Origin: a virus
Lineage: Duplodnaviria; Heunggongvirae; Uroviricota; Caudoviricetes
IMG/VR virus record: IMGVR_UViG_2657244961_000008
Span: 1-43,067 of that record
DNA length: 43,067 nucleotides
Direction: 5' to 3' (one strand)
This document shows, piece after piece, positions 1 to 37,241 of this stretch (position 1 is its first letter; every line of letters starts with the position of its first letter). The translations under genes were made by a program, and so were the position numbers. The notes under the pieces were generated by a model that searched no databases, was not told where the DNA came from, and worked only from the letters and a program-made list of their open reading frames with translations.

Positions 1-582
1 TTACTCTGCAGGTGAAGTCGGCCACTCAATATCAGGTGCAGTTGATGTATCAACACGATTCAACAACACCCGATATGTCTTCCATGCGGCCAGTAACGAT
101 TTCTCCTCCTCCGTCGCAATATCCAAATCTACGGCATCCTGAAGTGGCGCAATATGCTCACTGGCTACCTGCATCAGGCTGTTTTTTGTTTCTTCCGCCT
201 CTCGGATCCGGAACAGTTTTTCTGCTTCTGCATCTTTCACCCAGGCTGTGCCGTTCCACTTCTGAAACTCCCCTTCCGGCGATAACCAGGTAACATTTTC
301 CGCTAACGGACCGAGTTCAGAAATAAATAACGCGTCGCCGGAAGCCACGTCATAGACCGTTTTACCCCGATGGTCTTCAACGAGATGCCACGATGCCTCA
401 TCACTGTTGAAAACAGCCACGAAGCCTGCCGGAATATCTGGTGGTGCAATATCGGTACTGTTTGCTGGCAGACCTGTATGAGGCGGAATATATGCGTCAC
501 CTTCACCAATAAATTCATTAGTTCCGGCCAGCAGATTATAAATTTTTATGGTCCGTGGTTGTTCACTCATTCTGAATGCCAT
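1..582 (-). CDS. tfa: tail fiber assembly protein (Tfa)
   Basis: 193-aa ORF, complete (ATG at 580-582, stop at 1-3). Its start overlaps the stf stop (TAAATG arrangement). Sequence is typical of lambdoid Tfa chaperones. Confidence 0.8.
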
Positions 583-28676: not shown

Positions 28677-29498
28677 CTATCGCGTTACCCTCTTTAACTG
28701 CCGCTCCGCCCATGCCTCCTCAATGTCAAACCGAACCACCAGCGTATCGTAAAAACGCTTCACTGATTTTTTCCACGTATCAAGAGTAATAGCGCTCGTC
28801 ACTTTGCATATGGCATTAAACGCCTCTGTTGACGGCAATCTTTCATAGCCACGACCACCACAACGCTGGCAGTCTCTGATAACAGGCATACCACGTTTTA
28901 CCGACTCCTCACGATGAATGGCGACCCCACGCCCACGGCAATCCTTACAGGCGGTGGAGACCTCCCCCTTCCCTTTACATTCAGGACAGGAGACTTTCAC
29001 CACCTCCCGGACTCTTTTCCATTCTTCCCAGTAAGACGGATACACACCTTTCGTACACTTTGCCCATACCGGCGGCTTACCATCCGGATACTGGACCTTG
29101 TTTGTAAAAACTACGCTTTCAATAAATTTTTCCCCATAGCAACAAGGGCACTGCTTTTTACTCGCTGCGCTGCGGGCATAATCCTCAAAAGCATACGAAG
29201 CCATAATGCGCATCACTAACGGTTTTATTTCTGCCGGAAGTTTTCTCAACGCCGCCACACGATCGCACCGACTGAGTGCATAATCTGCCAGTAATTCTGT
29301 TGCCCGCGCCCTGTCATTCATACTGATGCCCATTTTCCCCAGGAACGCAGAAAACCCCATCTCAGCCCGATTCTGTGTCATGCCCTGCGCGGCCATCACA
29401 TCAGTGATACTCAGCGCATCTTTTGACGTTGAGGCCGATGCATCGGTCAGGCCAGGGGATTTTGGGGAGTAGTATTTCGGTAAATCTTCCAGTTTCAT
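28677..29498 (-). CDS. Q: late-gene antitermination protein Q
   Basis: 273 aa with several CxxC zinc-binding motifs. Follows RusA and is followed by the pR'/tR' unit. Confidence 0.8.
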   Translation of the reverse strand: MKLEDLPKYYSPKSPGLTDASASTSKDALSITDVMAAQGMTQNRAEMGFSAFLGKMGISMNDRARATELLADYALSRCDRVAALRKLPAEIKPLVMRIMASYAFEDYARSAASKKQCPCCYGEKFIESVVFTNKVQYPDGKPPVWAKCTKGVYPSYWEEWKRVREVVKVSCPECKGKGEVSTACKDCRGRGVAIHREESVKRGMPVIRDCQRCGGRGYERLPSTEAFNAICKVTSAITLDTWKKSVKRFYDTLVVRFDIEEAWAERQLKRVTR

Positions 29499-29869
29499 TT
29501 TTTGACCTGCTCTTCATGCATTATGGGGTAAATCTTCACCCCCAGACGTCCACCAGATACTGGCTGACCACGAACGATATTGATTTCATCAAACTGCTCA
29601 TCGTCCATTAACACTCCCGCATGCGTCAGCGCATCCAGCGGTGCTTTCAGGATATTGTCCAGGTCGCGACGACGCTTATCCGGTGGCTCTGCAATCACCT
29701 TTATCGCCAGCCTTCCGGACAGGCTTAATTTCAGCCGCTGCTGGCGAACAATAAGCGCCACAGCCCGGCGATAACGCTTTCCCTCCTCCGAGATAAAATA
29801 TGTGCTGCCACGGCGTCGCCAGTAAGTGTTCACCGTCGGCGGGTAAGGTAAAACCAAATCTATGAGCAT
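29495..29869 (-). CDS. rusA: Holliday junction resolvase RusA
   Basis: 124 aa, basic, in the typical nin-region position just upstream of Q (ATGA overlap with Q). Confidence 0.8.
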   Translation of the reverse strand: MLIDLVLPYPPTVNTYWRRRGSTYFISEEGKRYRRAVALIVRQQRLKLSLSGRLAIKVIAEPPDKRRRDLDNILKAPLDALTHAGVLMDDEQFDEINIVRGQPVSGGRLGVKIYPIMHEEQVKK

Positions 29870-29881
29870 CAGTCACCTCTT

Positions 29882-30928
29882 TTACCCAAGCACGCCAGTT
29901 GCAAAGGCGTGATCAAGAAAACGAAAAATTAAATCAACCTGGGAACCATGCTTTTCTTCGAACGCCAGCGGATCCACATGAAGTTCGTTGTGATGTTCCC
30001 GGCACAGCGGTAGCGTGAAAATATCGTGGGATTTCGTCCCCATTCCGCCCTGACCATGACCAATCAGGTGATGGGGATCGTCGGCTGGCTTACCACAACA
30101 CGCACACGGCTGTGTCTTTACCCAGCGCGTGTATTTCTCGTTAACCCAGCGGCGACGTTTAGGTCGTTTCATGAAAGATTCCGGAGACTCCGGATCAACG
30201 GCAATGCTGACCACCGTCTTTTCCTGTGGCGGGTTTTGCTGGTGGGCGTGAGGCAGCGGCGCAAGATTTTTTGTGCGCTGCTTCAGTATGCTGGTGGCGG
30301 TCTGCTCTCCCGGTACGATGTCGCTTTCACGGTACATTGAACGGATTTTTTCCGCACGCAACCCCAGCGAACGACGTAATACCGCTTCCGGTAGCGCGTC
30401 CGCCACCTGATTGCGGACTGCCCACCAGGATAATTCAGCCAGAGATAATTCACGCTCCTGCGTACCGCTTACTGCGTGACCGATGACGTCAATCATCCAT
30501 GCTGCCAGGTTTTGTTGAGCCAGATGTTCCAGTGATTCGGAGGTCTGGTCACGCAGCTGGTTGTCGCAGTGCCAGCACAACACCATCGCGCCGGTACCGT
30601 AACGATGTATGACGGTTTCACTGTGATGGTAGTCACCATGAGGCCACTGGCAGGATTTGACATGACGCAGTAGCCAGTCAGACAGTGCACCAGCGCCGCC
30701 GGCAGCACGAATCACCCGCTCATCGCTGAAAAATGGCAGCAGAGATTTGTCTTCCGCCAGCGGCTGGCGAACGGCAGGAACGACCCCGGACGGCAGACCG
30801 CGCATGCTTTTTGGTTCCGGCTCGACCAGTACACGCCCCTGCATAAACAAAGGCATCGCATCAGGACCGGGCCTGAAAAGTACAATCCCCAGACGGTGAG
30901 CAATTTCAGGAGTCACTAATACCCTCAC
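29882..30928 (-). CDS. DUF968-type protein with C-terminal HNH-like zinc-finger motif (YdfU-like)
   Basis: 348 aa. C-terminus CACCGKPADDPHHLIGHG...CREHHNELH. Size and position match Qin YdfU. Confidence 0.7.
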   Translation of the reverse strand: MRVLVTPEIAHRLGIVLFRPGPDAMPLFMQGRVLVEPEPKSMRGLPSGVVPAVRQPLAEDKSLLPFFSDERVIRAAGGAGALSDWLLRHVKSCQWPHGDYHHSETVIHRYGTGAMVLCWHCDNQLRDQTSESLEHLAQQNLAAWMIDVIGHAVSGTQERELSLAELSWWAVRNQVADALPEAVLRRSLGLRAEKIRSMYRESDIVPGEQTATSILKQRTKNLAPLPHAHQQNPPQEKTVVSIAVDPESPESFMKRPKRRRWVNEKYTRWVKTQPCACCGKPADDPHHLIGHGQGGMGTKSHDIFTLPLCREHHNELHVDPLAFEEKHGSQVDLIFRFLDHAFATGVLG

Positions 30929-30929
30929 A

Positions 30930-31202
30930 TTACCTCCAGATGCGTTGCTGGAATGTGCGGGACGGACGCGGCGGGCGTTCGGAATAAGGGAGCCTGACGT
31001 AGATTATCCAGTGACGGTAGTCGAGGCTAAGGGCTTTCTTAAACTCATACCCACGTCTGCGGTAGTTATGAATCAGCCATTCGGCCTGTTCTTCAGTGCA
31101 GGGATCGTGCTGATACCAGTCATATTTGAATGCGTGAGAACACAGCCCGCACCTGCTGGCAAGGTCGGTATCAGAATTGTGATATTTGGTATTGTGCGCC
31201 AT
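30930..31202 (-). CDS. hypothetical protein
   Basis: 90 aa from the ATG at 31202. The longer track ORF (to 31331) would include the hok terminator hairpin. Confidence 0.4.
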   Translation of the reverse strand: MAHNTKYHNSDTDLASRCGLCSHAFKYDWYQHDPCTEEQAEWLIHNYRRRGYEFKKALSLDYRHWIIYVRLPYSERPPRPSRTFQQRIWR

Positions 31203-31274
31203 CGGTTGTCTCTGCTGGCGCAGCAGGTGCCAGTTGTTCAGGCTGGCGTGCGAATTGTAAACCAGAATGCCAGG

Positions 31275-31300
31275 AAAAAACAAAACCCGCCGAAGCGGGT
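31275..31300 (-). terminator. intrinsic terminator downstream of hok
   Basis: Stem ACCCGC-CGAA-GCGGGT (31285..31300) followed on the minus strand by TTTTGTTTTTT. Confidence 0.5.
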
Positions 31301-31369
31301 TACGTGCGGGTGCGTTGAGGATGCCTGACACATCAGAGGTGGCGAGGGATTTCTCCCCCGCCTGGTCTC

Positions 31370-31525
31370 TTACTCCTCAGGTTCGTAAGCTGTGAAGACA
31401 GCGACCTCCGTCTGGCCGGTTCGGATTCGTACCTCGCAGAGGTCTTTCCTCGTTACCAGTGCCGTCACTATGACGGTTAAACAGATGACGATCAGGGCGA
31501 TTAACATCGCCTTTTGCTGCTTCAT
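31370..31525 (-). CDS. hokD: Hok-family type I toxin (HokD/RelF-like)
   Basis: Hand translation gives MKQQKAMLIALIVICLTVIVTALVTRKDLCEVRIRTGQTEVAVFTAYEPEE (51 aa), matching E. coli HokD as recalled. Absent from the ORF track because it is under 60 aa. Confidence 0.85.
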   Translation of the reverse strand: MKQQKAMLIALIVICLTVIVTALVTRKDLCEVRIRTGQTEVAVFTAYEPEE

Positions 31526-31815
31526 AGCCTGCTTCTCCTTGACCTTTCGGTCCGTAAGAGGCTAATCTCTATGTGTCGCATAGATATGGCCTCAGATTAA
31601 TGTTAAGCGTCTTGCAGGACGCGTAATGTTAACTGGGGCTTTTCTCTATCTGCCTTTTGGTGTTCATGCCTGAGACAGATAGCCTCAAGCACCCGCTGCA
31701 ATTCTACTTAACTCTCCTTTTCCCGCAAACCGTTTTTATCCCCAGCGGCAAATCGAATACACCACCAGCGCCGCCGCCATTGCAATTCCTGCCGTTGTAA
31801 ATGCCTCAGGCCAGG

Positions 31816-32331
31816 TCATCGTAAAACATCCTCCACGCTTATCAGTCCATTTCGTTTCAGGTAATGCATCGCCATCTCCGGTAATTTGCAGTCTGGATTA
31901 GCTTTTTTCAGTTGACTGACCAGTCGTTTAACCCACATTGTTAATTCGCCAACCTGATTACTGGATGCTAGTGGATTGTCGGCTTTACCCAGAATGACAG
32001 CACAGCAGGCCTCTTTGAGCACCCAGTCAACAGCGTCTTTCCATGCTCCTGTTTCGGCTGGCGGATTTTCACGCTTTACCTGTTCATAAAAGCGCACGGC
32101 TTTAACCAGTCCTTCTGATATCACCGGGACTGGCGGGGTAGTGAATAATGCCTGAATCTCATAGCTCGGCCTGTCGTTGCAATCCTCTTTTGTCGGTACA
32201 TATTTCCAGTCACCAACCCACATCTTCTCCTGAAAGTCCGTAACGCCTTTTTTCACGTAGCGATATCGCCATGCAACTGGTTTTGCCTGCCCTGCCGTTT
32301 CATGCCCTTCCTGATAATTAATCTCGCTCAT
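31816..32331 (-). CDS. hypothetical phage protein
   Basis: 171 aa with an ATGA overlap to the upstream small ORF. Confidence 0.6.
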   Translation of the reverse strand: MSEINYQEGHETAGQAKPVAWRYRYVKKGVTDFQEKMWVGDWKYVPTKEDCNDRPSYEIQALFTTPPVPVISEGLVKAVRFYEQVKRENPPAETGAWKDAVDWVLKEACCAVILGKADNPLASSNQVGELTMWVKRLVSQLKKANPDCKLPEMAMHYLKRNGLISVEDVLR

Positions 32332-34107: not shown

Positions 34108-34854
34108 TTACTTTTCAATACCTGGCTGACCAACATTCGGGCGCCAGCTCTCCCAGTTAAAATTCACCCAGCGACCACCGTTCATGGTCATGCGGTCCAT
34201 CACGCGTTCGCCAAGCAGCGTATTCATCGCTGCGTGGTTCAGGTTTGTCAGCATCCCGACGCTGTGCATCGAGGCCGTTCTGCGATCGACTATCTGGTTC
34301 AGTGTGACCTGTTCGTTACGCGTATCCCGCTGCATACCGATTTCATCCAGGATAAGCAGGTCAACTTCACACAACCCCTGCAAAAATTTTTCGCCTGAGT
34401 TTTTGTTGTCGTAGTTGCCGTGTAACGCCAGCATCACATCCGCCACCGTCACCACAATCACGCTGCGACCTTTCGCCAGAAGATGGTTGCCAATGGCTGC
34501 TGCCAGATGATTCTTTCCGGTACCCGGCTTACCGCTGAACACAAAATTCGTGCACCCGGTTATCAGTTCGCCTGCAATGGACTTCGCCTGGCTGAGTGCA
34601 TGACGCTGTCCGTCGTTCTGCACCTGGTAATTCGCAAACGAACATTTCTGGTGCAACGGCTGGATACCGGAACGATTCAGGAATTTTTCCACCCGTAACT
34701 GGCGATTCTGGCGGTTGATCTCCTCGCTACGTTTTCGCCCTTCTGCAAGCTGCCACTCCCGCCACTCGTCCACTGTCCGGTACGCCGCAGTTACATGCTG
34801 CGGGGCCAGCTTACGGATACGCTCAAGAACACCATCTGCCGCAATATTTTTCAT
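34108..34854 (-). CDS. DnaC-like replication helicase loader (IstB-like AAA+ ATPase)
   Basis: 248 aa with Walker A GKPGTGKN and Walker B LLILDEIG. Confidence 0.85.
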   Translation of the reverse strand: MKNIAADGVLERIRKLAPQHVTAAYRTVDEWREWQLAEGRKRSEEINRQNRQLRVEKFLNRSGIQPLHQKCSFANYQVQNDGQRHALSQAKSIAGELITGCTNFVFSGKPGTGKNHLAAAIGNHLLAKGRSVIVVTVADVMLALHGNYDNKNSGEKFLQGLCEVDLLILDEIGMQRDTRNEQVTLNQIVDRRTASMHSVGMLTNLNHAAMNTLLGERVMDRMTMNGGRWVNFNWESWRPNVGQPGIEK

Positions 34855-34860
34855 AGCCCG

Positions 34861-35826
34861 TTACCCCCTGAACCCCGGCGGAATTTCGGTGTCCGGTTCA
34901 GAAATGTGATTCACGCAACGCTGTACAGGCGAACGCCCCAGACGAATAACCAGCTCATCCCATTTTTCGCGAAGCTTTGACGGGCTCATGACGTTTTTTA
35001 CCCAGAATGGATCCCGCTGTACCCGACCAAACATTTCGCAAATTTGTCTGTGAGTTCTGCCATCCAGCATCCGCATTGTGCGCACATCATTGGCCCATGC
35101 AGTCCAGTTTGGTTCTTTCGGTCGCATGATTTCGCCATCATCGCTGGCAGCCTGCTCGTAAAGACTCACGATTCGTCCCCAGATCCACTGCGCACACGCT
35201 AAATCTTCCTGGCTGCCCCACTGGCGTTTTTTCGCACTGAACACAACCGCGTCAGGGTGTCGGTTTAAAAAATCCTGTTCAGCCGTCTGCATGTCCGGTT
35301 GCGAAGCTTCCGGACGAGAAGTTTTTTTATTCTCTGTAGTAATCTCTGTTGTATTCTCTGTAAGATCATCAGGCCATTTTGACCCGATGACATTGGGTCG
35401 TTTTGAACCAATGGAGCGTGCCATTTTGACCTCTTCCATCGTGTCATTTTGACCTGATGGAGCGGCGCATTTTGACCTGATGGATTCGTTCACTTTGCCA
35501 CCATCTAAAAGCTCGCTCTCGTAATTAATCGTGTAAAAATTAGTCATATCACGCTTTGATTTGTTGAGCTTTTCGCAACGCAAAAGCCCCAGCGTTTTCA
35601 GACTTGCAAATGCGCGTTTTAACGTTGACTCTGACCAGAACGGGAACTGTTCCAGCCATTGTTCTGTTGTGTTATAAATCCAGCGAACACCATCACATTC
35701 CATGCCGGAACTGGTATCTCTCAACCAGTAATGCAGCTGCTGCAACACGATGGCTTCGTTCAGACCAATTTTCATCGCCAGCTGCGTGTTTATAACCAGC
35801 GGACGTTCAGCAAAAAGGAGCTTCAT
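34861..35826 (-). CDS. replication initiator (O-like/YdaU-like), containing the putative origin
   Basis: 321 aa directly upstream of the DnaC-like gene. Contains an internal iteron array. Confidence 0.7.
   Translation of the reverse strand: MKLLFAERPLVINTQLAMKIGLNEAIVLQQLHYWLRDTSSGMECDGVRWIYNTTEQWLEQFPFWSESTLKRAFASLKTLGLLRCEKLNKSKRDMTNFYTINYESELLDGGKVNESIRSKCAAPSGQNDTMEEVKMARSIGSKRPNVIGSKWPDDLTENTTEITTENKKTSRPEASQPDMQTAEQDFLNRHPDAVVFSAKKRQWGSQEDLACAQWIWGRIVSLYEQAASDDGEIMRPKEPNWTAWANDVRTMRMLDGRTHRQICEMFGRVQRDPFWVKNVMSPSKLREKWDELVIRLGRSPVQRCVNHISEPDTEIPPGFRG
35375..35500. repeat. iteron array, putative replication origin
   Basis: Five to six direct repeats of CATTTTGACC (with variants CGTTTTGAAC and CACTTTGCCA) at a 23-bp period, starting at 35375, 35399, 35422, 35445, 35468 and 35491. 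Confidence 0.6.
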
Positions 35827-35847: not shown

Positions 35848-36273
35848 TCAATGCACCACCACGGCATTTCCCGCCGGACCACCACGATTCATCTGATTGA
35901 AACCAGCGATCGCCACTGCGACAAAATCATCAGCGTCTCTCACCAGTCGTTCCCGCATCTCCACCAGCTCCCGAAAATAGGCTGAACTGTGGCTGCGCAT
36001 TCGGGCCACCAGCAAAGGTGGCATTGCCTTTTCGATCGCTGGTAACAACGCCTGAATTTTTTCAACTGCATCAGGGGTGTCTTTCTCTACCCAGCGGAAA
36101 ATTTTCTGGGTATTGCGAGCCAGGGCTTCCGGATGGCTGTCGTCATACAGTTCCGGGAACGTCATTCCCAGCTCGAAATACGCTTTGGTAATTTTCGCAG
36201 CCGGTACTTTTTCGCCGTCCGGATGCGCCCAGGCATTCATCGCCATGCGGATATGTTCATGTTTGATTTTCAT
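35848..36273 (-). CDS. YdaT-like protein (Rac ydaT family)
   Basis: 141 aa beginning MKIKHEHI, directly downstream of the cro-like gene as in Rac ydaS-ydaT. Confidence 0.55.
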   Translation of the reverse strand: MKIKHEHIRMAMNAWAHPDGEKVPAAKITKAYFELGMTFPELYDDSHPEALARNTQKIFRWVEKDTPDAVEKIQALLPAIEKAMPPLLVARMRSHSSAYFRELVEMRERLVRDADDFVAVAIAGFNQMNRGGPAGNAVVVH

Positions 36274-36593: not shown

Positions 36594-37241
36594 ATGATGG
36601 AAAGCCTTGGCATCAGGCTTAAGAAACTCAGAAAAGATAAGGGACTCACCCAAGTAGAACTGGGTAAGCTTTCAGGCGTGACTGGGGTTACTATAGGGTA
36701 CTGGGAGAAAGATCTAAACGAACCCGGCAGCAAAGCTCTAAGTAAGTTAGCCCAGGCATTAGGAACTACTGAGTCCTATCTCCTGTATGGAGTATCGTCT
36801 CCTGAACTATCTTTTGTGCAGAGCAATCCAGGCACCAAGATCCCCTACTTTCCGTGGGGTGACGCGATTTCTTTCCTAATCTTAGAAGGAGAGAAAACAA
36901 TGGGAAATGTCGATAGGATCACCACATTCTTTGATGTAGTGGAAGGTGATTTTGCCGTTTCAATGCCTGATGACACTATGCATAACCCCTCAGGGTCACC
37001 AAGTATCCCGGTTGGTGCCACTGTGATCCTAAGACCAGGAGAGAGTTATAAAAATGGCAGTATCGTCGCTGTAATAGTTCCAGATCCACTTACAAATGAA
37101 CCGTCTATGACTATAAAAAAATTAGTTATTGATGGAAAACTTGTGTATTTAAGCCCTCTCAATCCGCGCTATCAATCATCCTTGCTTACGCCAGAGTGTA
37201 AAATTGTTGCCGTAGCAAAAGGTGTGCAGTTCAACCTATAA
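36594..37241 (+). CDS. CI-like repressor (N-terminal HTH, C-terminal S24 LexA-like peptidase domain)
   Basis: 215 aa. HTH near LTQVELGKLSGVTGVTIGYWE and a C-terminal S24-like domain. Confidence 0.85.
   Translation: MMESLGIRLKKLRKDKGLTQVELGKLSGVTGVTIGYWEKDLNEPGSKALSKLAQALGTTESYLLYGVSSPELSFVQSNPGTKIPYFPWGDAISFLILEGEKTMGNVDRITTFFDVVEGDFAVSMPDDTMHNPSGSPSIPVGATVILRPGESYKNGSIVAVIVPDPLTNEPSMTIKKLVIDGKLVYLSPLNPRYQSSLLTPECKIVAVAKGVQFNL

Follow-up and report, generated by a model that had tools for sequence, protein, structure and literature searches.

The hok/mok/sok locus (parB) occurs on R1 and the IncF plasmids; that of R1 is plasmid-borne and has a proven role in post-segregational killing. In R1, the hok mRNA undergoes 3' exonucleolytic processing, its duplex with Sok is cleaved by RNase III, Sok has a short half-life, and killing follows upon Sok decay (PMC9841398). 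Some of these processing and killing traits have also been shown for the hokW-sokW locus of Sp5 (PMC8621323). The R1 mok frame has 70 codons and overlaps the hok coding sequence, and its translation is required only as far as the hok start region: stop codons upstream of the hok start impair hok translation and abolish toxicity, whereas stops at or beyond it leave hok translation unimpaired (PMC9841398).

In Sp5, hokW-sokW is a working type I toxin-antitoxin system, with an antitoxin activity that depends in part on RNase III and Hfq; mutation of the sokW -10 hexamer abolishes this activity and unmasks toxicity. After mitomycin C treatment, sokW vanishes and HokW is found in the inner membrane ~1 h before the endolysin, and phage release is halved when hokW-sokW is absent (PMC8621323). 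The corresponding locus of phage 933W has three annotated genes, hokW, mokW and sokW (AF125520; Takada et al. 2021, PMC8621323). In E. coli K-12, the counterpart is hokD (relF, b1562) of the Qin prophage. Hok loci have also been surveyed across thousands of prophages (bioRxiv 10.1101/2025.08.07.668861).

The window analyzed here is the whole 43,067-nt stretch of IMG/VR record IMGVR_UViG_2657244961_000008. Within it, a locus of 511 nt is 97% identical to E. coli prophage loci with the PGAP annotation 'type I toxin-antitoxin system toxin HokD'. A match to this locus is present in 4956 of the 5426 complete E. coli genomes (about 90%), with a median of 2 matching places per genome and a maximum of 11. 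The locus is a complete and ordinary copy of hok/sok, of the hokD/hokW type that most E. coli prophages carry, and the system is already known: it is annotated in RefSeq and GenBank, it is covered by Pfam and Rfam models, and a relative has been tested in Sp5. Taken as a whole, it is very probably best explained as a complete module of the hokD/hokW lineage with an R1- and Sp5-like mechanism, and with assistance to lysis as its most likely role.

The locus is part of the nin region of a lambdoid prophage, where hok points in the same direction as the early rightward (PR) operon. The nin-like setting proposed in the initial annotation is borne out by the minus-strand gene order, which runs from cII, O and a DnaC-like loader to hok and then through DUF968/YdfU and RusA to Q. 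The landmarks, with the repressor gene on the other strand, are:

36594..37241 (+), cI-like repressor
35848..36273 (-), cII
34861..35826 (-), O
34108..34854 (-), DnaC-like loader
30930..31202 (-), 90-aa protein of PHROG 1212 (E 1.7e-37)
29882..30928 (-), DUF968/YdfU
29495..29869 (-), RusA
28677..29498 (-), Q

The prophage is a mosaic, and no identical record was found for it in the collections searched; 2-kb matches in complete E. coli genomes reached at best 93.5%, and the best phage match extended over 40% of 12 kb. Directly 3' of the hok terminator there is a mosaic breakpoint (31250..31283), at which other E. coli prophages hold an extra 324 bp (SK1144) or ~666 bp. The ~666-bp insert contains a 393-nt 'hypothetical protein', called 'mobile element protein' in some phage records. 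Elsewhere in the window, an Rfam RNA-OUT match (26622..26691, +, 97.3 bits) adjoins a 402-aa ORF (25421..26629, -), and together (25421..26691) they point to an insertion sequence of IS10 type on the downstream side of the Q region. The DicF antisense sRNA lies beyond the repressor gene (38512..38563, +, 76.7 bits), and the left end of the window matches the IS009 RNA family (41..239, -, 198.3 bits).

Two ORFs in the program-made track overlap the locus and had been suspected of being artefacts in part. For 30930..31331 (-) the suspicion was justified only for the 5' extension, which overlies the hok terminator and fbi; the remainder is real and begins at ATG 31202, with a match to PHROG 1212 and a PGAP-annotated homologue in SK1144 that has an equivalent start. 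In the annotation, this ORF should be shortened to 30930..31202. The plus-strand ORF 31130..31318 gave no family match in Pfam or NCBIfam and was treated as an artefact. The same was done with a leader ORF at 31603..31701 (32 aa, TTG start), which had no family support. A hydrophobic ORF of 27 aa (MTWPEAFTTAGIAMAAALVVYSICRWG, 31736..31819, -) ends just before the hok promoter, and its ATG overlaps the stop (ATGA) of an upstream 171-aa ORF. The peptide is kept in 933W and in E. coli FDAARGOS_1248, with silent as well as replacement changes, and is unannotated in both. It gave no match in Pfam or NCBIfam, and its product may be a small membrane protein.

The toxin gene itself comprises the following:

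31370..31525 (-), hok toxin coding sequence, 51 aa plus TAA; Pfam PF01848; 156 of 156 nt identical to K-12 hokD (b1562)
31535..31540 (-), hok Shine-Dalgarno sequence AAGGAG, read from the sequence; overlaps the Sok -35 hexamer of the opposite strand
31384..31387 (-), TACG motif, formed by the Tyr47 codon and the first base of the Glu48 codon, read from the sequence; candidate TadA A-to-I editing site, Tyr to Cys

The initial annotation had placed a 51-aa Hok-family toxin at 31525..31370 (-), and its coordinates are correct. The frame translates to MKQQKAMLIALIVICLTVIVTALVTRKDLCEVRIRTGQTEVAVFTAYEPEE followed by a stop, with all 51 codons of the 156-nt ORF read through and no frameshift. The Pfam HOK_GEF model (PF01848) scored 82.9 bits against it (cutoff 22, E 1.2e-23) over the entire profile (1-42 of 42), which places the protein in the Hok/Gef family of small toxins (~50 aa) with an N-terminal hydrophobic helix and a conserved Cys. 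The NCBIfam Hok subfamily models stayed below their strict cutoffs (48.5 against 73), which is uninformative, since the window protein is 100% identical to HokD. The proposed AAGGAG ribosome-binding site is present at 31540..31535, 9 nt 5' of the hok ATG. It had also been remarked that hok is invisible to the ORF track; it is indeed missing there, because a 51-aa product falls below the 60-aa ORF cut-off. For annotation, this means that the window has a real toxin gene and a predicted antisense RNA that were missed at that cut-off. Codons 47-48 of hok (31382..31387, -) read TAC GAA, which gives the TACG motif. TACG is a reported TadA A-to-I editing site, and Tyr to Cys recoding has been described for hokC, hokD and hokE (bioRxiv 10.1101/2025.08.07.668861).

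The 51-aa protein and the 156-nt coding sequence of K-12 hokD are identical to those of the window, and the 3' UTR, fbi and terminator differ only by three single-base differences and a change in the T-run; within the terminator, the T-run is all that differs. The gene neighborhood agrees as well: hok is followed by a small ORF at the place of rem, then by ydfU (DUF968) and Q. However, K-12 has nothing of the locus upstream of the hok Shine-Dalgarno sequence: the homology ends at ~31539, where relE-relB take over. Alignment of K-12 MG1655 1645119..1645872 placed the relBE/hokD junction just 5' of the hok Shine-Dalgarno sequence, corresponding to window position 31539. Since the homology stops there, K-12 is without tac, ucb, mok and Sok, whereas the window carries the whole regulatory leader.

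The transcript that would carry this leader is delimited by the following:

31701..31728 (-), predicted hok/mok promoter, read from the sequence: -35 TTGCGG 31728..31723, 16-nt spacer, -10 TAGAAT 31706..31701
31523..31694 (-), hok leader matching Rfam RF01794 'sok' (106.7 bits, model 1-157 of 157)
31278..31694 (-), predicted full-length hok mRNA, ~417 nt, starting with tac and ending in the T-run of the terminator; from the RF01794 start and the terminator scan
31341..31362 (-), 3' UTR stem-loop GGCGGGGGAGAAATCCCTCGCC, predicted protective end of the processed mRNA; 9-bp stem in all folds
31275..31301 (-), intrinsic terminator at the end of hok, AACCCGCTTCGGCGGGTT followed by a T-run; from the terminator scan

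The 172 nt upstream of hok match RF01794 over its full length, with 106.7 bits against a gathering threshold of 59 (E 6.9e-25), and have the conserved sequence and structure of the hok-leader family. Together with the Pfam match to the toxin, this score is far above what chance would give. On one point the initial reading of the locus has to be amended: despite its name, the Rfam 'sok' model matches the hok-sense strand, not the Sok strand. The model reads in the hok sense up to the hok AUG, so that what it identifies is the hok leader, to part of which Sok is complementary. The predicted +1 (31694) was taken from position 1 of the Rfam model and from the 5' end of R1-type hok mRNAs, GGCGCUUGAGG; the predicted -10 hexamer ends 6 nt before it. 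The hexamers are weak in both promoters, hok (TTGCGG-16-TAGAAT) and Sok (TTGACC-18-TAATCT), and a generic sigma-70 scan of 31000..32000 found no promoter, so the promoter assignments rest on homology, with the annotated sokW of phage 933W as reference.

At the other end of the transcript, the terminator scan recovered the intrinsic terminator that had been noticed downstream of hok, with a 7-bp stem (5 GC pairs) at 31301..31284 and a tail to 31275. Located between Q and the replication genes and facing the same way as the PR early operon, this terminator would double as a terminator of the nin region, to be passed by early transcription on its way to Q. Upstream of it, the stem-loop at 31362..31341 is predicted to guard the end of the processed hok mRNA, by analogy with R1 (PMC9841398). 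Rfam also returned weak matches to isrK (27.1 bits against 50), rsmX and ceN48 over the hok 3' UTR and leader; all are below their gathering thresholds and are explained by the hairpin-plus-terminator shape.

The hok mRNA also carries the boxes of the R1-type RNA switch. Of the elements for which a search had been suggested, mok, tac and fbi were all found, and the pairing boxes are:

31683..31694 (-), tac (translational activator), GGGTGCTTGAGG, mRNA 5' end; from the folds, and unchanged in all 97 unique related loci
31635..31641 (-), ucb (upstream complementary box, or anti-Shine-Dalgarno), AAGCCCC; from the folds
31558..31562 (-), dcb (downstream complementary box), GCCTC; partner of the mok Shine-Dalgarno sequence in the minimum free energy (MFE) structure of the RNA ending at 31345
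31308..31320 (-), fbi (fold-back inhibition), CCTCAACGCACCC; 12 bp with tac and a single bulged C

In the MFE structure of the full-length mRNA (31694..31278, -172.9 kcal/mol), the 5' end is closed onto the 3' end by long-range pairing of tac with fbi (31694-31683 with 31320-31308, 12 bp and one bulge), and the CCCC of ucb (31635..31638) pairs with the GAGG of the mok Shine-Dalgarno sequence (31593..31590). In RNAs that end at 31345 or 31335, tac is predicted to switch to ucb (31635..31641) and the mok Shine-Dalgarno sequence is freed from ucb; its new partner is dcb (31558..31561) for the former and the new 3' end for the latter. For a nascent RNA of 55 nt, the MFE structure is a tac hairpin with 31676..31666, which corresponds to the metastable structure. 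The full-length, truncated and nascent conformations of ucb and tac thus each appear as a predicted MFE structure, depending on where the RNA is truncated, and the same three conformations have been described for the R1 hok mRNA (PMC9841398). RNAs ending at 31340, 31330 or 31325 give a closed 5' hairpin instead. As the MFE structures of truncated RNAs flip between open and closed with the chosen 3' end, the switch is plausible but is a prediction only. An R1-type locus, folded as a positive control, behaved alike and gave the same tac-fbi closure.

Comparison of 93 unique related mRNA sequences is consistent with the full-length structure, in which 95.5% of the structure cells are canonical pairs. 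Double-sided compensatory changes were found in the lower tac stem (31680/31648, AT to GC and the reverse; 31674/31654, CG to TA and the reverse), and three compensatory pairs were found in the 3' stem-loop (31358/31345, 31356/31347 and 31355/31348). In this set fbi is nearly invariant, and the tac-fbi pairs vary solely from G-C to G-U. Covariation does show between distant members of the family: tac is GGGUGCUUGAGG in the window and GGCGCUUGAGG in R1, and each is accompanied by a matching fbi, GCACCC and GCGCC, respectively. R1 has the same predicted switch, with tac-fbi closure and ucb on the mok Shine-Dalgarno sequence. It also shares the position of Sok antisense to the mok start region, the 19 mok codons that precede the hok ATG and the overlap of the Sok -35 hexamer with the hok Shine-Dalgarno sequence. 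Outside the conserved boxes, by contrast, there is little nucleotide similarity between R1 and the window, and the two Hok proteins are 42% identical.

On the plus strand, the antisense RNA would be specified by two features:

31539..31568 (+), putative Sok promoter by homology to sokW (AF125520): -35 TTGACC 31539..31544, 18-nt spacer, -10 TAATCT 31563..31568
31575..31643 (+), predicted Sok antisense RNA, 69 nt; mapped by alignment from the 933W sokW misc_RNA

The plus-strand TTGACC noted earlier is present at 31539..31544, and its interpretation as the promoter of an antisense Sok RNA, overlapping the hok translation start region, is supported by homology to sokW of 933W. The putative promoter, the 69-nt RNA and its hairpin with U-run appear collinear with the annotated sokW, the generic promoter scan being negative. 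The predicted length also agrees with the expectation of a plus-strand RNA of 60-70 nt. Sok is predicted to fold, at -29.3 kcal/mol, into a 22-bp terminator hairpin that is followed by UUUU and preceded by a 5' tail of ~13 nt, the tail being complementary to the mok start.

The reading frame on which Sok would act is mok:

31590..31593 (-), mok Shine-Dalgarno sequence GAGG, 8 nt 5' of the mok ATG; covered by the Sok complement
31522..31581 (-), mok ORF, window allele: ATG 31581, 19 sense codons (MRHIEISLLRTERSRRSRL), TGA 31524..31522

This candidate mok has a Shine-Dalgarno sequence of its own and is open as far as the hok start region, in a variant geometry: it reads through the hok Shine-Dalgarno sequence, and its TGA overlaps the hok ATG (ATGA). 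The 933W locus is 92% identical to that of the window, and in both tac, ucb, the mok start region, Sok, hok and fbi follow one another in this order, but in 933W mokW extends hokW N-terminally, in frame and with 70 codons, against the 19 codons of the window mok. In the alignment, the mok region of the window differs from 933W and FDAARGOS_1248, and from most E. coli copies, by a 2-nt deletion and a 1-nt insertion. The same indels turn the Sok promoter from the TTGCCT-17-TAACCT of 933W into the TTGACC-18-TAATCT of the window. The two loci differ further in the sequence of the Sok 5' tail and in four C-terminal residues of the toxin. Directly after fbi, 933W diverges and is without the terminator hairpin of the window, and its locus lies near the right end of the phage genome, while that of the window is in the nin region.

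We compared 125 hokD-type loci, consisting of 119 from one IMG/VR pattern scan, that of the window and other related loci. The in-frame 70-codon mok is the commoner form (97 of the 125), the exact 19-codon allele of the window occurs in 17, and 5 have an out-of-frame mok of 68 codons that is R1-like. Across these three frames, mok is open to the hok start in all 125 loci, and in none of them does a mok stop lie upstream of the hok ATG. The 111-nt segment that bears the window allele has 100% identical copies in many E. coli chromosomes, and the number of E. coli records with a match of 99% or more is 1524. The idea that the frame change is a one-off mutation was rejected on these counts. Given the stop-codon genetics of R1 (PMC9841398), the 19-codon allele should still couple to hok, which suggests that it still works. 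The existence of the third frame makes the mok frame beyond the hok start look unconstrained rather than broken.

By homology to R1 hok/sok and to hokW-sokW of Sp5, the module could operate in five steps. First, the weak promoter would give rise to a stable hok mRNA of ~417 nt that is closed by tac-fbi pairing; in this form ucb would hide the mok Shine-Dalgarno sequence, such that neither ribosomes nor Sok could engage. Second, slow 3' trimming to the stem-loop at 31362..31341 would remove fbi, whereupon tac would pair with ucb and the mok Shine-Dalgarno sequence would be released. Third, the short-lived 69-nt Sok would pair with the mok start region, and RNase III would cleave the duplex, with the help of Hfq as in Sp5. 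Fourth, if Sok drops because the element is lost, transcription is arrested or the prophage is induced, ribosomes would translate the 19-codon mok and stop at the UGA overlapping the hok AUG, so that hok would be opened or re-initiated. Antiterminated PR transcription through the locus, against the Sok promoter, is a plausible route to such a drop on induction. Fifth, the 51-aa Hok would enter the inner membrane and depolarize the cell.

Sequence alone does not determine the biological role of the module. Most likely, Hok produced after induction would help lysis and phage release, as measured for hokW-sokW of Sp5, and it is the behavior of that locus that places this role first. It is an extrapolation, because hokW differs in its place in the genome, its 70-codon mok and its Sok promoter. 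Stabilization of the prophage by post-segregational killing and exclusion of other phages are possible as additional roles.

An alternative is that the module is functional and serves chiefly in post-segregational killing, as prophage addiction, or in abortive-infection defense, with help to the lysis of its own phage being secondary. We regard this as a real but rather improbable alternative. The homologue in 933W is annotated 'prophage maintenance', and, according to the introduction of PMC8621323, R1 hok/sok maintains its plasmid and has been implicated in phage defense. The window moreover preserves the architecture of a stable mRNA with an unstable antisense RNA. However, the sequence holds nothing to tell these roles apart, and the sole direct experiment on a prophage locus of the hokD/hokW type yielded a lysis and phage-release phenotype (PMC8621323). 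In addition, the chromosomal loci hokA, hokB and hokC gave no post-segregational killing in the work cited by the prophage survey, and the survey itself saw no enrichment of hok near defense systems (bioRxiv 10.1101/2025.08.07.668861).

Very unlikely, in our judgment, is that the locus is a silenced or decayed hok remnant, carried passively, in which the mok indels shift the frame and leave hok untranslatable: the window allele is indeed unlike the majority form, many chromosomal hok loci are reported to be inactive (bioRxiv 10.1101/2025.08.07.668861) and nonsense mutations inside hok in 6 of the 125 related loci show that decay does occur in this lineage, but here no damage is seen in the hok coding sequence, in either Shine-Dalgarno sequence, in tac, fbi or ucb, in the Sok promoter or in the terminators, mok stops exactly where R1 tolerates a stop, and both the recurrence of the identical allele and the R1-like third frame argue against a broken leader.

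In the functional module that we favor, one segment stands out for its variation. Among the 97 unique loci, variability peaks at 31571..31590 on both strands, a stretch made up of the 5' tail of Sok, the start codon of mok and the mok codons after it. The segment (31590..31571) is the single variability hot-spot of an otherwise highly conserved hok transcript and falls into about seven major discrete alleles among 120 IMG/VR phage loci. A speculative explanation, which we consider doubtful, is that prophage copies of hok/sok may diversify the 'address' by which Sok recognizes its target, such that co-resident copies avoid neutralizing one another. In the only four same-genome pairs, the Sok-tail alleles differ in three and are identical in one, against a chance identity of 0.11. 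If the explanation were true, the window allele would be a distinct specificity and regulatory class and not a neutral variant, marked by its unique tail, by a mok of 19 codons that ends on the hok AUG and by a Sok promoter nearer to consensus.

Biologically, the locus is nothing new in kind. It shows, in intact form, what the Qin hokD locus was like ancestrally, before the relBE insertion that truncated it in K-12, and the natural alleles in all three mok frames are independent support for mok translation being of importance only as far as the hok start.
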